Assembly: GCA_905234245.1 (NCBI GenBank)
Contig: CAJOGN010000005.1
Span: forward strand, 411 to 64,410
DNA length: 64,000 nt
Origin: an uncultured Lachnospiraceae bacterium
GTDB lineage: Bacteria; Bacillota; Clostridia; Lachnospirales; Lachnospiraceae
Reading direction: 5' to 3'
This document shows, one piece after another, positions 4,667 to 59,908 of this stretch; position 1 is the stretch's first letter, and each line of letters begins with the position of its first letter. The notes below the pieces were generated by a model, which was not told the origin of the DNA, did no database searches, and worked only from the letters and a program-made list of their open reading frames with translations. The position numbers and the translations under genes are program-made.

Positions 4667-4686
4667 ATTAATTCCTCCTAGTTTAT

Positions 4687-4806
4687 ATGTGCAGGCACTA
4701 TAGCTTACTTATGTATCAACTAACATATACCTTCACGCTCATACAGAAAATCGCTTAGAAGGTATATGTTAGCTGATACGATACTTAGTAGCATTCACCT
4801 GCACAT
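4687..4806. repeat. Conserved-loop hairpin, copy A (apex TCATACAGAAAATC at 4739..4752)
   Basis: ATGTGCAGG pairs with CCTGCACAT and CTAACATATACCTTC pairs with GAAGGTATATGTTAG. These stems flank CGCTCATACAGAAAATCGCTTA. Lies between the permease stop and the SDR start. Confidence 0.75.
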
Positions 4807-4833
4807 TTTAATTATATTAATGTATATTATACA

Positions 4834-9461: not shown

Positions 9462-9472
9462 AACATGCTGTG

Positions 9473-9535
9473 TTTCGACGAAGTCGAAATACTGCACGCA
9501 GCCGCATTTCGCGAAGCGAAACTACAAATGCGTGC
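9473..9535. repeat. Nested GC-rich hairpin cluster upstream of aroC
   Basis: TTTCGAC-GAA-GTCGAAA (9473..9489) and TTTCGC-GAA-GCGAAA (9507..9521). The second is enclosed by GCACGCA (9494) / TGCGTGC (9529). Confidence 0.6.
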
Positions 9536-9558
9536 TGCTCCTTTCTATATTGTTATTA

Positions 9559-14165: not shown

Positions 14166-14441
14166 TTACACTAAATCTGTATCTTCCAAAAGTTCAGAGA
14201 ACACCTTAATTAAGGCTTCGTACTCATCGTCCTCTTCAACAGGAACATACGTTAACTCGTTATCATCATCAGACACTTCCTTAAAGATATAAGCATCTGA
14301 CTCGTCAGAATCATCCTCTGATACGAGTAGATACTTCTTTTCTTTAAGAGTTGTCTGTTCAATTACAAATAATTCGACTTCTTCATTACTATCTGTATCA
14401 TAAAAAGTTATTTTATCCAAAATTAAAACTCCTATCATCAT
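14166..14441 (-). CDS. DUF1292 (YrzB-like) acidic protein
   Basis: Acidic ~85-aa protein in the conserved position after ruvX. AGGAG spacing suggests the real start may be TTG at 14420. Confidence 0.8.
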   Translation of the reverse strand: MMIGVLILDKITFYDTDSNEEVELFVIEQTTLKEKKYLLVSEDDSDESDAYIFKEVSDDDNELTYVPVEEDDEYEALIKVFSELLEDTDLV

Positions 14442-14505
14442 CTAGGTCATAAAATATCTTCACACTCATACAGAAAATCGTGTTGAAGATATTTTATGCC
14501 CTAGA
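14441..14505. repeat. Conserved-loop hairpin, copy B (apex 14466..14479)
   Basis: TCTAGGTCATAAAATATCTTCA pairs with TGAAGATATTTTATGCCCTAGA. These stems flank CACTCATACAGAAAATCGTG. Confidence 0.75.
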
Positions 14506-14517
14506 TTAGCTACCAAC

Positions 14518-19380: not shown

Positions 19381-19448
19381 GTCAATAAGTGACAAATACC
19401 TGCCCGCTCATACAGAAAATCGCTTGGCAGGTTTTGTCACTTATTGGC
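19381..19448. repeat. Conserved-loop hairpin, copy C (apex 19408..19421)
   Basis: GTCAATAAGTGACAAATACCTGCC pairs with GGCAGGTTTTGTCACTTATTGGC. These stems flank CGCTCATACAGAAAATCGCTT. The right arm overlaps the last codons of rsmE. Confidence 0.75.
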
Positions 19449-20184
19449 CTGTAATCTGTTCTATATCCAACATCACCATAGCCACAGTTGTTATGGCTGC
19501 TGTATCAGTTCTTAGTATACGCTTTCCTAAGGATATGATTTCACTTTCCTTGAGTGCTTCAATCTCTTCAGGTGCAAAGCCACCTTCTGGTCCTATGAAT
19601 ATTGCCACCTCTTTATAATCCGATAGTTTCTTAAGAGCATTTACAGTAGCTTCCATACCATTCTTATTCTCATAAGGAACCAGCCGCAAAATATCAGGCG
19701 AAGTCGACTCCTTAACAGCCTCATCAAAGGTCATGAAATCATAGATAAATGGAATACACGAACGCTTTGACTGCATTGCTGCAGCCTCTGCAATCCTCTC
19801 ATACCTGTCAACCTTCTTTGCCTTCTTCTTATCATCAAGCTTAACGACGCAGCGCTTCATTTCAACAGGAATTATGGATGAGACACCAAGCTCAGTACAT
19901 TTCTCAATTATTGTCTCCATCCGATCCCCTTTAGGCACGGCCTGATACAGACTAATCTTGCAAGGAAGCTCTGTTGTCAGTAAATCATCAATCACCTTAA
20001 GTGTAAGCTCATCATTATCAACACTTGTCACCTCACACAAATAGCTTTCCTCTGCGCTGGTACTAACTCTTATCTTCTCGCCTTTCTTGATTCTACAGGC
20101 CTTAACAAGATGATTAGCATCACTGCCATTAACCTTAATCATATTATCTTCTATCTGGTTATTATCAATAAATATCTGTTGCAT
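19441..20184 (-). CDS. rsmE: 16S rRNA (uracil1498-N3)-methyltransferase RsmE
   Basis: 247 aa. Has a PUA-like N-terminus (HL.K..R...G) and a SPOUT C-terminus (IGPEGGF...E......G....SLG.RILR.ETA). Confidence 0.9.
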   Translation of the reverse strand: MQQIFIDNNQIEDNMIKVNGSDANHLVKACRIKKGEKIRVSTSAEESYLCEVTSVDNDELTLKVIDDLLTTELPCKISLYQAVPKGDRMETIIEKCTELGVSSIIPVEMKRCVVKLDDKKKAKKVDRYERIAEAAAMQSKRSCIPFIYDFMTFDEAVKESTSPDILRLVPYENKNGMEATVNALKKLSDYKEVAIFIGPEGGFAPEEIEALKESEIISLGKRILRTDTAAITTVAMVMLDIEQITGQ

Positions 20185-21134: not shown

Positions 21135-21324
21135 TTTACATCCCTTTTTAATTATAAATCTACCCAATACATAAAACCATTCCACATACAATCTGCATTA
21201 TTATAACATATAATTTGCGTTATATCTTTTTCATTTTGAAATATATTATATATTAACTTGACAACAGTATTATTACACATTATACTCATTTTATAAGGAA
21301 GCGGTTTTCTACCGAAGGTAGCTT

Positions 21325-21810
21325 TTACGAGTAATCCGTCGGTTTACACGCTTCTTTTTTTATATTTATAATATCGTGAAGAAATATCCCTTTATCATTA
21401 ATTCTTGCAACAGCTGTTGCGTTATAATAGTTCTTCCGATTAGCATTCTCTACATTATCATATACTTGTACTACAAAATAAACATCATATCTATACCAAC
21501 CCCTTATTGCATTTTTAGAATGCTTCTTATCCTTATTCTCAACCCATCTCCTGTTAGAAGCTGAAGACAATAATTCAGGTATAACTTGAACAATATTGGC
21601 CTTAGTTTTTGCCAAACCTCCTCTAAGCCTCTTCGTATAGTTTGAACTCGTATACTCGTCTGCAAACAATGCATTAATTATAATATAATCCCCATACTCC
21701 TTATTGTAAATTGCTAAGCCATCATATTTTCGTAGATATTTTTCGACATCATTCCACGCAATATTCTGTTTCCCTCTAAAAATAATCTTATTTACTTCTA
21801 TATATTCCAT
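21325..21810 (-). CDS. Hypothetical protein (161 aa), an orphan gene in an AT-rich spacer
   Basis: ORF flanked by >100 bp of non-coding AT-rich DNA on both sides. I cannot confirm any family. The ..KHSKNAIRGWYRYDVYF.. segment vaguely recalls stand-alone toxin/nuclease-like domains of polyvalent proteins. Confidence 0.5.
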   Translation of the reverse strand: MEYIEVNKIIFRGKQNIAWNDVEKYLRKYDGLAIYNKEYGDYIIINALFADEYTSSNYTKRLRGGLAKTKANIVQVIPELLSSASNRRWVENKDKKHSKNAIRGWYRYDVYFVVQVYDNVENANRKNYYNATAVARINDKGIFLHDIINIKKEACKPTDYS

Positions 21811-22115
21811 AAATACTCCCCGTAAAACATATTAATAATTATTGGATTGCGCAAGAATTATGTTGATTCGACATTTGAATTTGACAAATAGAAATATAGA
21901 TAACAAAACGTCTTAATGCGCATTTTTATGCGTAATTCTTGCCAAGAATTGTAGGTATATGGTATCACTATACCAATAATTATTCAATATAAAAATGAAG
22001 GATATCATAAGCCTTATCTTTATCTCTAAACTCGCCCTAAAAATGTGTAGAAAATGTGTCTAAAATATCATATAATTATGATTATAATATTAACAGTTCG
22101 AAAGGAGAAAAAAAT

Positions 22116-23404
22116 ATGGGATTAATTAAAGCTGCTATGGGCGCTGCAGGCGGAACTTTGGCAGATCAGTGGAAGGAATTCTTCTATTGTGATGCAATGG
22201 ACAAAGAAGTAATGGTTGTCAAAGGTCAAAAGAGAACTTCTGGCGAAATGACAATATTATTTCTAATGGTTCGGGAATTGCTGTAGCTGACGGTCAATGT
22301 ATGATTATCGTTGAGCAGGGTAAGGTTGTTGAAATCTGTGCTGAGCCTGGTGAATTCACATTTGACTCATCTACAGAGCCTACAATATTCTCAGGAGACC
22401 TTGGCGATAGCATTATTGCCACCTTCCAGGAAATGGGTAAGCGATTCACTTATGGTGGAGACCCCGGCAAAGACCAGAGAATCTATTACTTCAACACCAA
22501 GGAATTAATGGACAACAAATTCGGAACTCCTAACCCGATTCCTTTCAGGGTACTTGATTCTAAAGTCAATCTTGACCTTGACACATCTGTAAGATGTTCC
22601 GGCGTATATTCATACAGAATAGTTGATCCTATTCGTTTCTATACTAATGTATGTGGAAATGTATCTGAAGAATACAGACGTGAAGAGATTGAATCTCAAC
22701 TTAAGACAGAGTTCATCGATGCACTTCAACCAGCATTCGGTGCGCTATCTAACTTAGAGATTAGACCTAATCAGATTGTCTCTCACAACAAGGAATTAAA
22801 GGATGCAGTTAATGAGGCATTAAAGGACGATTGGCTTGAGAAGCGTGGTCTTGAGATTATCAGTATTGCTATTGGTTCTGTATCACTTCCTGATGAAGAT
22901 GCAGAATACATCAAGCAGGCTCAACGTTCTCGTGCATTCTCAGATCCGGGTATGGGCGCAGGTCTAGGTGCTATTGCCGGTGCTGATGCTATGAAGGCAG
23001 CTGCTTCTAATGAAGGTGGTGCCATGAATGGATTTGTTGGAATGGGAATGGCAATGAATGCTAATCAGATGAATACTGCTAATACAGCTAATCTGTATGC
23101 TATGAATCAGCAAAATCAGCAGATGCAACAGCAACAACAGATGCAACAACAAGCTGCTCCTGCTGGAAATGCCTGGACATGTCAATGTGGCACACAGGTT
23201 ACTGGCAACTTCTGCCCTAACTGTGGTTCTAAGAAGCCTGAGCCTCAAGGCGCATGGACTTGTCAATGTGGCACACAGGTTACTGGCAACTTCTGTCCTA
23301 ACTGTGGCTCTAAGAAGCCTGAAGCTTCTACTTCCTGGACTTGCCAATGTGGCACATCCAACACTGGTAAATTCTGTAGCAACTGTGGTTCTCCACGACC
23401 ATAG
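22116..23404 (+). CDS. SPFH-domain protein of the YdjI family (COG4260-like) with a poly-Q linker and three C-terminal zinc ribbons. The frame is interrupted by a 1-nt frameshift near 22246..22248.
   Basis: Frame 1 (22116..22286) reads MGLIKAAMGAAGGTLADQWKEFFYCDAMDKEVMVVKGQKRTSGE. The next frame, open from 22193, continues NDNIISNGSGIAVADGQCMIIVEQGKVVEICAEPGEF... One extra A in GCGAAATG would join the two frames. The C-terminus carries 3x WTCQCGT.VTG.FC.NCGS. Confidence 0.8.
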
Positions 23405-34207: not shown

Positions 34208-35392
34208 TTATACAATGAATTCTCTTGCAATAGTATTTTGCAATTCTAGGCCTCTACGAGTTGGCTTAATTCGATTGCCTTCATTAATAAGTAATTCTTG
34301 ATTTATGAGGCTTTCAATTTGGCTTCCATACGCATTTTCAAGGGATATTCTGTATGCATTGTAGAAATCATCAAAGCTTACTCCCTCATTCATACGAAGT
34401 CCAAGTATCATAAATTCAGACATACTTTCCTTAGCTGATAATGTCTCCTGTTCTTCATATTCTATGGCAGGGTTAGCCAGGGAATAATTCTTAATATACG
34501 TATCCAGATTAGTTATATTCTTGTATCTTACCTCTTCATAAAGAGACGCTGCTCCCAGACCAAAGCCAATATATGGTGTCCTCTTCCAATAACCAATGTT
34601 GTGACGACACTCGTACCCTGCCTTGGCATAATTAGACACCTCGTACTGCTCGTAGCCTCTTCCTTTAAGAAATGCATTGACATAATCCGTCATCTCACAC
34701 AGCACATTTTCCTCAGGTAGATACTTCGTCTTCTTAGCCAGACACTGATTGTAATAATCCTCCTTATACCTATCATAAAAGGCTGTGCCCTCTTCAATTA
34801 TCAGGGAATAGGCGCTAATATGCTTAGGCCTAAACATAGTAATCGCTTTAAGCGTCTTACTTAGTGAATCAAGAGTTTGATTAGGAAGACCATACATAAT
34901 ATCGACATTGTAATTAGTAAAGCCCGCCTTCATTAATGAGTCGAGTGTCCTTACAAAGCTATCATAATCGTGAATCCTGCCAAGAGTCTTCAATTCCTCA
35001 TCGTTAGCTGATTGAAGTCCAATGCTTAGCCTGTTAATTCCATAGGACTTATATACAGAAAGACTGTCCTTACTTACCGTTCCAGGATTACACTCAATTG
35101 TAACCTCGGCATCTCTTGATATGGAAAATGTGTCATCAAGAGTGTTCATTATCTTAATAATTAGCTTGGCCTCTAAGGTGCTTGGTGTGCCACCGCCAAT
35201 ATATATAGACGTGACTTTCCTGTCCGATAGCTTTTTGGCTTTAATCTCAATTTCAGAACATAAAGCATTAACATAATACTCTCTTGTTTCTGGATTTGAT
35301 GGAAATGACAAGAAATCACAATAGTCACATTTCTTTACACAAAATGGAATATGAATATATAGTTCTATTTCGTTTTCTCTAGTCTTCATCAA
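34208..35392 (-). CDS. hemW: Radical SAM family heme chaperone HemW (oxygen-independent coproporphyrinogen-III-oxidase-like)
   Basis: [17 protein letters not shown] (CxxxCxxC) and a HemN_C-like C-terminus. Conserved position after lepA. Confidence 0.9.
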
Positions 35393-37190
35393 GCTTTAAC
35401 ACACTCATAAATGCGCTCTGAGGAATGTCAACATTTCCTACCTGACGCATTCTCTTCTTTCCTTCCTTCTGCTTTTCTAACAACTTCTTCTTACGAGATA
35501 TATCACCACCATAGCATTTAGCTAATACATCTTTTCGGACAGCCTTAACAGTCTCTCTGGCAATAACCTTATTGCCGATTGCTGCCTGAATTGGTATCTC
35601 GAATAAGTGACGAGGAATCTCCCCCTTAAGCTTCTCACACATCTTACGACCACGTTCATAAGCAGTGCCTTCGAATACGATAAATGACAGAGCATCAACT
35701 GGCTCCTTATTAATAAGAATATCAAGCTTAACAAGGTTAGACTTAACGTATCCCTTCATCTCATAATCAAAGCTGGCGTATCCACGGGAGCGCGATTTCA
35801 ATGCATCGAAGAAATCGTATATTATCTCATTTAACGGAAGAGTGTATTTAAGGAGCGCCCTTGTCTCTTCCATATATTCCATACTAATGTATTCGCCGCG
35901 CCTCTCCTGGCACAAATCCATTATGGCTCCAATATAGTCTGAGGTTACCATAATCTCTGCCGCAACAACTGGCTCTTCCATATAATCAATTTCAGAAGGA
36001 TCAGGAAGGTTCGATGGATTAGTAAGCTCTATCATCTCCCCATCAGTCTTATGCACTCTGTACACAACGGAAGGTGCCGTTGTAACAAGATCAAGATTGT
36101 ATTCTCTCTCTAATCTCTCCTGAATAATCTCAAGATGAAGCAATCCTAAGAATCCACATCTAAATCCAAAGCCCAATGCAATAGATGTCTCTGGCTCATA
36201 TTGAAGTGCCGCGTCATTAAGCTGAAGCTTCTCTAAGGCATCTCTTAAGTCAGGATACTTGGCACCATCTGCAGGATACAATCCACAGTAAACCATTGGA
36301 TTGACTTTCTTGTATCCTGGGAGAGGTTCTGCGCAAGGATTATCCCTGTTAGTCACTGTATCACCTACCCTTGTATCAGATACATTCTTAATGGAAGCCG
36401 TAACATATCCTACCATTCCAGCTGTAAGCTCTTCACAAGGCACGAACTGTCCTGCTCCGAAATATCCTACTTCAACAACATCAAATTCGGCTCCACTTGC
36501 CATCATCCGAATAGGGTCGTTAGGTCTTATCACTCCTTCTTTTACTCTTATAAATACTATGACACCCTTATATGGGTCATATATTGAATCGAAAATCAGT
36601 GCCTGAAGTGGATTGCTATTGTCACCTGTTGGTGCTGGCAAATCCGTTACAATAGCCTCTAACACATCCTCTATATTCAGACCTGTCTTCGCCGATATCT
36701 GTGGAGCACTCTCTGCCTCAAGACCAATTACATCTTCTATCTCATCTATTACTCGCTTAGGGTCAGCAGACGGAAGGTCTATCTTATTAATTACAGGTAT
36801 AACATCTAAATCGTGGTCTAGGGCAAGATACACATTTGCCAGAGTCTGAGCCTCTACACCCTGAGCTGCATCAACAACTAATATTGCACCATCGCAAGCG
36901 GCAAGAGACCTTGATACCTCATAATTAAAATCCACATGACCTGGGGTATCAATCAGATTAAATATATACTCATTGCCGTCCTTGGCATTGTATACAATTC
37001 TAACTGCCTGGGACTTAATGGTGATGCCACGCTCTCTCTCTAAATCCATATTATCAAGAACCTGGGACTGCATTTCTCGCTCAGTGAGCAGTCCGGTCTT
37101 CTCTATTATTCTATCTGCAAGTGTTGATTTGCCATGGTCGATATGAGCGATTATGCAGAAATTCCTAATATACTTCTTATCTATTGACAT
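35379..37190 (-). CDS. lepA: Translation elongation factor 4 (LepA)
   Basis: [24 protein letters not shown] and NKID GTPase motifs, plus the LepA-specific C-terminus. 603 aa. Confidence 0.97.
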
Positions 37191-37227: not shown

Positions 37228-37452
37228 GTATATGGTATAGCTTATATATTCACTTCTAATTCTTCGCTAAGTATATGTAAGGAATTGTTATTAGTCTTAA
37301 GTGATATTAACTAAGAACCGCCCATTGATCTGACATCGTGTCAGCAATAGGCTAGTTCCGACATCCTGTCGGAACTTTCTTACCTCGAACAATTCCTAAC
37401 ATATACTAAGCTTGAATTAATGTCGTGAATATATACAGTCTATACCATATAC
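37228..37452. repeat. Very long imperfect inverted repeat (~62-bp arms) with a ~100-bp core carrying twin mini-hairpins, in the lepA/holA divergent intergenic region
   Basis: The arms are GTATATGGTATAGCTTATATATTCAC...GGAATTGTT and AACAATTCC...GTGAATATATACAGTCTATACCATATAC. The core hairpins are CTGACA-tcg-TGTCAG (37330..37344) and GTTCCGACA-tcc-TGTCGGAAC (37355..37375). Confidence 0.65.
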
Positions 37453-55340: not shown

Positions 55341-55400
55341 ATATAAATAACAGAAACCTGCATACAGAAAATCGGCATGTCAGGTTTCTGTTATTTATAT
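55341..55400. repeat. Conserved-loop hairpin, copy D (apex CATACAGAAAATCG at 55361..55374). Likely a bidirectional terminator between htpG and the HD-GYP gene.
   Basis: The 20-bp perfect stem ATATAAATAACAGAAACCTG / CAGGTTTCTGTTATTTATAT encloses CATACAGAAAATCGGCATGT. Confidence 0.75.
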
Positions 55401-55448
55401 TGCTTTTCTCTCAAAATCGCTTTACAGGCCTTGGCTGTTTTTTTACTT

Positions 55449-59481: not shown

Positions 59482-59514
59482 GTTATCTCCTGTAATTGAT
59501 ATATTACATGTTGT

Positions 59515-59571
59515 AGGATATAGGCACCTGCTAAGCGATTTTCTCCATGAGCGTGCAGGTGTATATATCCT
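59515..59571. repeat. Conserved-loop hairpin, copy E (inverted orientation; variant apex TCATGGAGAAAATC on the minus strand, 59538..59551)
   Basis: AGGATATAGGCACCTGC pairs with GCAGGTGTATATATCCT. These stems flank TAAGCGATTTTCTCCATGAGCG. Confidence 0.7.
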
Positions 59572-59578
59572 ATAATTC

Positions 59579-59836
59579 TTAAACATCAAGCACCAAGTAC
59601 CTGCCATTAGGTAGTGAGAATACTTCCTCACAATTAATGATATCACTATCACTCATTCCTGAAATGTCCGCGACATCATCAAGGTACTCCCTAACCTCTT
59701 TAACATTCTTACACACAGTTGCGAAGCACTCCTCTAGGAATTCATCTGCTTCCTCTCTCGTTGACGCAACCTCTTCAGGAAACAATTGTAATTGATGCTC
59801 TAAAAAATAATCTAATGTATCATTATCATAAGTCAT
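59579..59836 (-). CDS. Small acidic hypothetical protein
   Basis: ORF downstream of addA. GAGG lies 8 nt before ATG 59836; the listed TTG start at 59866 is less likely. No recognisable family. Confidence 0.45.
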   Translation of the reverse strand: MTYDNDTLDYFLEHQLQLFPEEVASTREEADEFLEECFATVCKNVKEVREYLDDVADISGMSDSDIINCEEVFSLPNGRYLVLDV

Positions 59837-59908
59837 ATTATCATCCTCGTTTACTCTATCACACAAGTTATTATTCTAACTCATATATTATTTAAAAAAA
59901 CACAAATA

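Follow-up and report, generated by a model that had tools for sequence, protein, structure and literature searches.

A loop-tagged hairpin family of rumen Lachnospiraceae and its reading as a small mobile DNA element

REPs, MITEs and attC sites are defined by conserved ends or stems, whereas the window (the 64,000-nucleotide stretch of Lachnospiraceae DNA analyzed here) holds hairpins that combine a fixed loop with free arms and fixed bulges. What kind of element keeps its loop constant while its arms vary, and does it act as DNA or as RNA? An earlier note had described five such hairpins and remarked that their logic of conservation is the reverse of that of REPs, MITEs and attC sites, and the fixed loop and the variable stems and ends found here bear this out. 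The family is a kind of palindromic mobile element that is tagged in its loop and stands outside any named family. Its best explanation, to which we assign a probability of about 55%, is a small, non-autonomous palindromic mobile DNA element, the loop and irregularities of which are read on single-stranded DNA by a trans-acting enzyme.

The five hairpins of the window and their conserved core

The degenerate 14-mer TCATRSAGAAAATC occurs in the window at 4739-4752(+), 14466-14479(+), 19408-19421(+) and 59537-59550(-), that is, four times as against no occurrence in 100 shuffled windows, and the shorter motif CATACAGAAAATCG picks up copy D too (55361-55374). All five copies fold into a hairpin, with z-scores of -5.3 to -10.4, and correspond to inverted repeats I1, I2, I3, I5 and I18, which are among the longest short-range ones in the 64 kb. 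A covariance model built from 39 family members and run over the window with filters off recovered copies A-E and no other match, at 56-73 bits for A, B, C and E and 24 bits (E 7e-4) for D. By shuffling, folding and covariance model alike, the five-copy family of the earlier note is real, and its coordinates for copies A-E were right (Table 1). The count of five stands for full hairpins and has to be amended for a sixth, half copy immediately right of copy D, in which the 3' half of the core (AAAATCGCTT) is followed by a right arm of the family type (TACAGGCCTTGGCTG) and then by T7; its left half is absent, and copy D occupies that place. The 14-mer also occurs 120 times in viral contigs; as a control, these occurrences were considered as family members and rejected as chance matches, since none has a flanking inverted repeat (inverted-repeat score at most 7, compared with 18-20 at the window copies).

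Table 1. Hairpin copies of the window, their cores and the corresponding insertions
Feature	Position	Strand	Length gained	Description
Copy A	4687..4806	+		120-nt hairpin, ~43 bp per arm with irregularities
Copy A core	4736-4756	+		21 nt, CGCTCATACAGAAAATCGCTT
Copy A, whole insertion vs empty site	~4680-4833		+153 nt	permease stop codon / SDR-gene Shine-Dalgarno
Copy B (allele B1)	14440..14506	+		67-nt hairpin, 23-nt arms
Copy B core	14463-14483	+		CACTCATACAGAAAATCGTGT
Copy B, whole insertion	~14435-14517		+82 nt	ruvX stop codon / DUF1292 Shine-Dalgarno
Copy C (allele C1)	19381..19448	+		68-nt hairpin, core 19405-19425
Copy D	55341..55400	+		60-nt hairpin, perfect 20-nt arms, htpG / HD-GYP convergent gap
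Copy D core	55361-55375	+		divergent, CATACAGAAAATCGG
Half copy	55413..55437	+		sixth family member
Copy E	59510..59576	-		59-67-nt hairpin
Copy E core	59533-59553	-		CGCTCATGGAGAAAATCGCTT
Copy E, whole insertion	~59493-59578		+86 nt	95-aa ORF stop codon / prsA Shine-Dalgarno

The core is an asymmetric 21-mer, CGCTCAT-NN-AGAAAATCGCKT, with 15 invariant columns in 39 sequences and a variable central dinucleotide (AC, AA, GA, GG, AG or AT). The 14-nt loop is closed by two G-C pairs, and these closing pairs covary (CAC..GTG, GCC..GGC). CGCTCAT..AGAAAATCGCTT is common to copies A, C and E, as had been reported, and the CAC...GTG of copy B is the compensatory change that it had appeared to be, because a sister allele at the same site (B2) has CGC..GC. 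A K-turn, a promoter and a small ORF starting from the loop ATG were dropped as readings of the core for want of support.

Elements are usually 60-70 bp long (range 59-123 nt), with stems of 20-46 bp, loops of 14-21 nt and arms of typically 19-23 Watson-Crick pairs, the median being 20 and the longest reaching 46 or more. The arms differ among the copies within RUG191 and within the window; a subfamily that shares its arms, with more than 12 members, is present in Red_deer_1_mag_187 alone. The outer arms of one copy bear no relation to those of another, and the same holds for the insert ends. The earlier note had placed a conserved core on completely unrelated stems; the core holds, but the stems are not completely unrelated, as GAAGRTATATKTTA is common to the arms of copies A and B, and ACCTGC lies beside the core in C, D and E. 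The core-proximal stem often reads ..AAAKACCTGCA/AGCAGGTYTT.., and a layered arm pattern, [ATGTCT][AAKYA][CCAAAK][ACCTGCA]-core, is common to many copies. Type IIS ACCTGC sites, paired and placed 4 nt away from the core, were also considered, an idea that was abandoned because many copies are without ACCTGC. At the foot of the stem, the 10 nt outside the base are AT-rich in 33 copies and show no conserved position that could serve as a tag.

Pairing between the arms is kept by double changes. Eight of the nine core-proximal pairs have changed on both sides, the double changes amount to 65 cells as against 13.6 in shuffles (none of 500 shuffles reaches 65), and the proximal pairing is lost if the partner arm is shifted by 1-3 columns. 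One-sided (wobble) changes account for a single cell. Over the whole arms there are 1011 Watson-Crick pairs, nine G.T-type mismatches as read on one strand and 15 on the other, and 62 other mismatches, 30 of which are a conserved A.A adjoining the core. A bulge in the left arm, 8 nt from the core, is present in 23 copies, and so is one in the right arm, 12-15 nt from the core, which is nearly always a C in the context G-C-T; other copies, A and B among them, have a mismatched C at position 16. The right-arm C irregularity tracks the orientation of the core, not the direction of transcription. Because the bulges persist, something selects for them. What is constrained in the family is Watson-Crick pairing, the loop and the positions of the irregularities, and the arm sequence is free.

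Strong covariation and arm lengths that cluster at about 19-23 bp, or about two helical turns, would suit a hairpin that is primarily a cis-acting RNA (an RNase III site, an mRNA stabilizer or a dock for a loop-binding protein) and mobile only secondarily. The kind of pairing speaks against it, as G.U is almost absent (one one-sided change versus 65 double ones) and wobble mismatches are no commoner than others. Moreover, neither strand folds consistently better after subtraction of the 2.3 kcal/mol contributed by the loop. A strand-specific G.U signal was rejected on the same ground, because the one-strand advantage of 2.3 kcal/mol is also found in perfectly paired copies and thus comes from the loop (wobbles, 9 vs 15).

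Gene context, empty sites and turnover of alleles

All 53 surveyed copies are intergenic; 39 lie between co-directional genes, eight between convergent genes and one between divergent genes. The location at gene boundaries described earlier holds for every copy in the window, with permease and SDR genes flanking A, ruvX and DUF1292 flanking B, the 3' end of rsmE at C, htpG and HD-GYP at D, and the 95-aa ORF and prsA at E, and the distance to the next Shine-Dalgarno sequence downstream is 5-17 nt for copies A, B, C and E. Among the 39 co-directional copies, 29 have GATTTTCTGTATGA on the mRNA strand and 10 on the opposite one; copy E was confirmed to be flipped. The core-sense strand has a negative GC skew in 39 of the 53 copies, skew and gene direction being confounded at this scale, and a decision between replication and transcription as the cause of the orientation bias was given up because the two are confounded in the data. 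For a role in RNA, this context is favorable in that the copies lie in probably transcribed spacers, usually 5-30 nt upstream of a Shine-Dalgarno sequence, and have GAUUUUCUGUAUGA on the mRNA strand with a bias of 29:10. The same counts tell against it in that a quarter of the copies are oriented the other way and that the asymmetry tracks the core, not transcription.

It is extremely improbable that the copies are intrinsic, perhaps bidirectional, terminators that share a loop by chance. Copy D, between convergent genes and followed by T-rich sequence, would fit such an account. However, a T-run follows five of 33 copies on one strand and one of 33 on the other, so that the earlier statement that they are not classical terminators holds; most copies are inside operons, directly before a Shine-Dalgarno sequence; and stems of 20-45 bp with loops of 14-21 nt are unlike the ordinary terminators of the window, which have arms of at most 16 nt and loops of 2-14 nt.

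Using RuvX homologues, we collected rumen metagenome contigs syntenic with window positions 3800-25400. Their identity to the window is 97-98% for L291, L293 and L295, about 92.5% for L285, L301 and L308, and 79% for L281. Strains 92-98% identical to the window show presence/absence polymorphism at sites A, B, C and E, and the comparison of orthologous intergenic regions suggested earlier thus yielded both filled and empty alleles at A, B and E; with filled and empty sites in near-identical strains, the element is caught in the act. Site A is empty in L285 and L286 (..ttctGA-a-AGGAGGaattaatATG) and filled (+153 nt) in the window, L301 and L308. Site B is empty in L285-288, L293 and L289 (TAA-t-AGGAG), holds allele B1 with its 82-nt insert in the window, L291 and L295, and holds the sister allele B2 in L301, L308, L306, L310 and L315. 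Site E is empty in L316 (tgtTTAA-c-AGGAGAtaacATG), the PrsA of which is 98% identical to that of the window, and the window has 86 nt more. Metagenome assemblies are liable to mishandle palindromes, but these empty alleles recur in several independent samples; the elements are likely to break short-read assemblies. In other Lachnospiraceae, which are distant outgroups with 52-59% identity, the ruvX|DUF1292 gap is mostly 0-23 nt, so the hairpin at site B is the derived state, and it is for site B alone that the direction, gain rather than loss, is firmly established.

At the empty sites A, B and E, a single nucleotide separates the stop codon from the Shine-Dalgarno sequence, and the three resolved inserts sit exactly in this gap. 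Each carries the core and its two arms together with a further 5-28 nt, rich in AT, that lie outside the hairpin. The apparent target duplication is 0 at site A (1 nt replaced), 5 nt (AATAA) for B2 and at most 3 nt (TTA) at site E. CTCCT-N stands on one side of all three junctions, a regularity that is inseparable from selection for the stop/Shine-Dalgarno gap. No donor for the arm sequences was found in the window or in 560 kb of related loci outside other copies. Because the empty sites have no hairpin and the arms are unlike the flanks, the whole hairpin arrived as one unit, and we regard insertion of an entire mobile DNA hairpin as very probable. Once inserted, the element is part of the spacer of the operon, which is probably transcribed, and such sites offer a natural experiment on how an operon is affected by a hairpin of 60-120 nt placed 1 nt before a ribosome-binding site.

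The earlier note had also raised the possibility of a small element that targets existing hairpins or creates new ones. In the former case, the 14-21-nt core would be a tiny element inserting into the loops of existing hairpins or terminators. Nested loop insertions do occur, in the core of Red_deer_1_mag_187 copies (a 31-nt mini-hairpin) and in a terminator loop of L317; nevertheless, the empty sites A, B and E (TGA-a-AGGAGG, TAA-t-AGGAG and TAA-c-AGGAGA), with their 1-nt gap, hold no hairpin, which contradicts the idea at all three resolved sites, and the inverted-repeat survey found no long hairpin without the core in the window. We therefore consider it very improbable. No more credit is due to the latter case, in which the core would trigger a new palindrome, for instance through inverted copying of one flank during fold-back or template-switch synthesis. 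The near-perfect arms and the indels mirrored in both arms are what such synthesis could leave behind. The arms, however, match no flank of an empty site, and neither the rest of the window nor the 560 kb of related loci, so that the resolved sites contradict this idea as well; simple fold-back copying could not yield the conserved bulges; and the same-arm copies of Red_deer_1_mag_187 indicate ordinary copying of whole elements.

The alleles at a given site turn over. B1 and B2 have the same outer arms. A 5-bp indel mirrored in both arms (GGCAT/ATGAC) sets them apart, and their loop-closing pairs (CGC..GC to CAC..GTG), central dinucleotide and right flank differ as well; in total, the element shows 15 mismatches per 100 alignment columns versus 1-4 per 100 in the adjoining genes. 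Template switching within quasi-palindromes is a known mutational route, with which the mirrored indels agree. At site C there are four alleles, namely C1 (window), C2 and two distinct empty ones. C2 consists of two tandem elements, one intact with its core in the other orientation and one decayed to just 'tatgagcg' and the right arm of C1, and L281-284 have a further hairpin at this site with different arms and the core TCATGCCAAAAATC. The C2 remnant and the half copy beside D both break in the middle of the core and keep opposite halves of it. Insert A shows a single SNP over its 153 nt in backgrounds 7.5% apart, and the backbones around it differ at 4-6 positions per 100 nt as far as the very junctions. 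This implies that it spread recently, through either a short recombination tract or repeated insertion at the same site.

One copy is orthologous between RUG191 and Red_deer_4_mag_23, where the flanking proteins are 87-88% identical. Its loop and the 12 proximal pairs are the same in both and its distal arms are wholly different yet still paired; the arms of a palindrome can thus turn over completely and remain paired. Retention of this copy with an unchanged loop and proximal stem is a further point for an RNA role. The gain or loss of copies between strains 97-98% identical with unchanged flanking genes is a point against it.

Copy C carries the last codons of rsmE and its stop codon (19441-19443) in one arm. 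The last 4-6 codons of rsmE vary by strain (..DIEQITGQ*, ..EVECNT*, ..GIEQLE* and ..EIERAGI*; window 19441-19470, L285, L291, L308 and L281), and this variation arises because hairpin elements have repeatedly been gained and lost at the gene end. The elements are therefore a source of structural variation between strains of rumen Lachnospiraceae and change the ends of genes, as the rsmE stop codon at copy C illustrates.

Tandem, nested and half-core copies all exist in the family. Red_deer_1_mag_187 carries a core variant, CGCTCATGACGAAATGTCGCTT, and some of its copies are interrupted, in the core or in the right arm, by a GC-rich mini-hairpin of 31 nt (TATGCGCACCCCGAACGGGGTGTGCCGGTAA); the loci of these variant and nested copies are L144 (~2727), L166 (~7584) and L150 (6838-6880). 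The position of the mini-hairpin indicates that elements nest in one another. AATGTCGTATGCGCACCCCGAACGGGG, beside some of the Red-deer copies, was once suspected to be the 5' end of a group II intron; Rfam gave no match, and the sequence turned out to be the 31-nt nested mini-hairpin. The HD-GYP terminator (CCCGGCATTT..AAATGCCGGG) has a loop with a 31-nt nested palindrome in L317 (14085-14150) and a 2-nt loop in L318 (14085-14120), which indicates that palindrome insertion into loops takes place in these genomes without the core studied here.

Distribution and comparison with known systems

With CRCTCATNNAGAAAATCGYKT we searched 185,579 species, each represented by one genome; the genome of the window is not among these representatives. 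The scan gave 79 loci. About 45 fall in six rumen Lachnospiraceae MAGs (RUG191, Red_deer_1_mag_187, Red_deer_4_mag_23, RUI409, SIG318 and Pseudobutyrivibrio UBA3626), and every one of them is inside a hairpin. The other ~34 are in other phyla, one per genome and without an inverted repeat, which is roughly the number expected by chance. The motif outside hairpins, on which the earlier note had proposed to check the family, is thus found at chance level in viruses and other phyla, and the copies in rumen Lachnospiraceae are all in hairpins. The covariance model, a second check suggested there, gave 58 matches in 302 kb of loci from the six MAGs, whereas 877 kb of syntenic loci from other Lachnospiraceae, most of them of the human gut, gave none. 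The consensus was absent from the phage and plasmid collections searched. The hairpin family is restricted to a small clade of rumen Lachnospiraceae.

A search of Rfam at gathering threshold over the window gave no match for the hairpins, its single match being a TwoAYGGAY RNA elsewhere, and E-value mode gave only chance-level matches for copies B and C. Membership of no Rfam family, E-value mode included, adds to the case against an RNA role. Such a role could coexist with mobility; as the primary explanation it fits poorly, and we hold it to be unlikely. A mobile DNA element is a better fit than a strand-specific RNA, in accordance with the earlier suggestion of a DNA-level role: DNA is preferred because the arms pair strictly by Watson-Crick rules, one copy in four runs against the direction of transcription, and the right-arm C follows the core.

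Among known systems, REPs and their RAYTs are alike in being small, imperfect, multi-copy palindromes with tandem or clustered arrangements. REPs are strictly intergenic; most lie between co-directional or convergent genes, and few between divergent ones (PMC3733652). The core hairpins follow the same pattern. In E. coli REPs, a mismatched bulge in the stem is required for RAYT binding (PMC3479197), and both families have stem irregularities at fixed places. However, REPs are 20-40 nt long with an unpaired GTAG or CGTC tag at the foot, whereas the core hairpins have no foot tag and conserve a 21-nt apical core; their arms are twice as long and differ within a genome, whereas REP stem sequence is shared within a genome. 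MITEs (Correia, RUP, BOX and ERIC) are likewise non-autonomous, polymorphic for presence, co-transcribed with their neighbors and able to fold into a long hairpin, but they have fixed terminal inverted repeats, a fixed target duplication and a variable center, where the core hairpins have variable termini and a fixed center. The core hairpins are REP- or MITE-like in copy number, location and polymorphism, yet fail the defining tests of both.

In attC sites, too, structure is kept while sequence varies, and extrahelical bases mark one strand of the folded single-stranded DNA. Unlike the core hairpins, attC sites have R''/R' boxes at the stem base and a variable center, occur one per cassette and are served by IntI; the stem bases of the core hairpins are unconserved, and the copies lie between housekeeping genes. 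Rolling-circle origin hairpins of CRESS-DNA viruses and pT181/pMV158-type plasmids have a conserved apical loop on variable stems, with the HUH nick site in the loop. The conserved apical loop on a variable stem is what the core hairpins have in common with them, but such origins occur once per replicon beside a rep gene and iterons, whereas the core hairpins are chromosomal, number dozens and have no adjacent rep gene. HUH Rep proteins recognize single-stranded DNA (PMC9973303). The half-core remnants and the variable central dinucleotide suggest, by analogy with rolling-circle Rep nick sites, that the chemistry may take place in the loop.

In IS200/IS605 elements, an imperfect DNA hairpin is recognized as a structure and, as in the core-hairpin family, there is no regular target duplication. 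IS200/IS605 elements have an orientation bias along the chromosome (PMC5027513), and the core hairpins show a bias in which GC skew and gene direction are confounded. In IS200/IS605-derived elements, orientation is tied to the lagging-strand template, and insertion takes place 3' of a fixed 4-5-nt target. A short fixed motif by the insertion (CTCCT-N in three of three cases) is a further likeness, which may reflect tolerated sites. The two differ in that IS200/IS605 carry a pair of subterminal hairpins, with the guide and cleavage sequences located at the ends, and the core element has a single hairpin at its center and ends that are not conserved. Mechanistically, the nearest models are the Y1/HUH enzymes of IS200/IS605 and RAYT, which bind imperfect hairpins and depend on a stem mismatch; they leave the target unduplicated and work at the replication fork (PMC3479197, PMC5027513).

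A possible mechanism, and further features of the window

In the mobile-element explanation, a trans-acting, structure-specific enzyme, most plausibly an HUH/Y1 transposase of the IS200/IS605 or RAYT kind, would recognize the loop and the fixed irregularities on one DNA strand folded into a hairpin. Cleavage or joining would take place inside the loop near the variable dinucleotide (TCAT-NN-AGAAAATC), and this would explain the half-core remnants. The arms would stay complementary for two reasons, in that foldable copies alone would propagate and that template switching would copy arm changes across the palindrome; effects on mRNA, such as processing or stabilization, would be a by-product. 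That the candidate enzyme is one that reads the loop on a single strand has, in our estimate, a little short of an even chance. The more specific proposal of a class of hairpin transposons, with a single-strand DNA enzyme that reads the apical loop and the two fixed bulges, cuts or joins at the variable dinucleotide and targets stop/Shine-Dalgarno junctions, is put forward tentatively. On that proposal, recognition would mirror that of the REP/RAYT, MITE and attC systems. The family would point to a hairpin-recognizing enzyme with a different mode of reading, and HUH nucleases and integrases have repeatedly become tools.

Several observations weigh against this explanation. No candidate enzyme was found in the window or recurring beside the copies in 41 loci: clustering of all ORFs in these copy-bearing loci gave no recurrent neighbor gene, a Pfam scan of unannotated ORFs in the window gave no transposase, and no rep gene was found near the copies in the 41 loci or the window. 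The genomes of the carrier clade were sampled as 8-20 kb pieces, and in the DNA sampled (the window and the 41 loci) we saw neither a RAYT gene nor an IS that shares the ends of the element. Target duplications are irregular (0, 3 and 5 nt), and a fixed cleavage site at the ends is not evident, since the insert ends are unconserved and there is no stem-foot tag. The 5-28 nt of AT-rich sequence carried outside the hairpin count against recognition of the loop alone. Finally, the retained orthologous copy and the 3:1 orientation bias could both be produced by selection at the level of the transcript.

The window has other features of note, several of which vary among strains. An insertion of about 81 nt, GC-rich, lies at 9466-9545 (minus-strand reading) between the lactonase stop codon and the aroC start, with TTTCGC-ttc-GCGAAA and TTTCGAC-ttc-GTCGAAA as its two mini-hairpins (DNA fold z, -4 to -5). 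The window, L291 and L295 carry it, and L285, L301, L308 and L293 lack it (gaaaTAAgcATG). It looks like another mobile palindromic family, unrelated to the core hairpins, at the same kind of site. Positions 21198-22041 form a strain-variable cassette, where the window has a 161-aa ORF (21325-21810) with a weak LPD3 match, L285, L301, L308 and L281 have an Amidase_3 gene, and L291 has neither. The 95-aa ORF next to copy E (59579-59866, minus strand) is acidic, has no Pfam match and is flanked by addA and prsA; in a species 79% identical to the window (L317, L319), the corresponding spacer is 84 nt long and lacks the ORF. An 81-nt tandem duplication in a coding region (23171-23356), the copies of which are 88% identical, is shared by the window and most strains but not by L285. 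The TwoAYGGAY RNA (Rfam RF01731, 82 bits) is located at 37256-37421 (-), upstream of the gene at 35379-37190.
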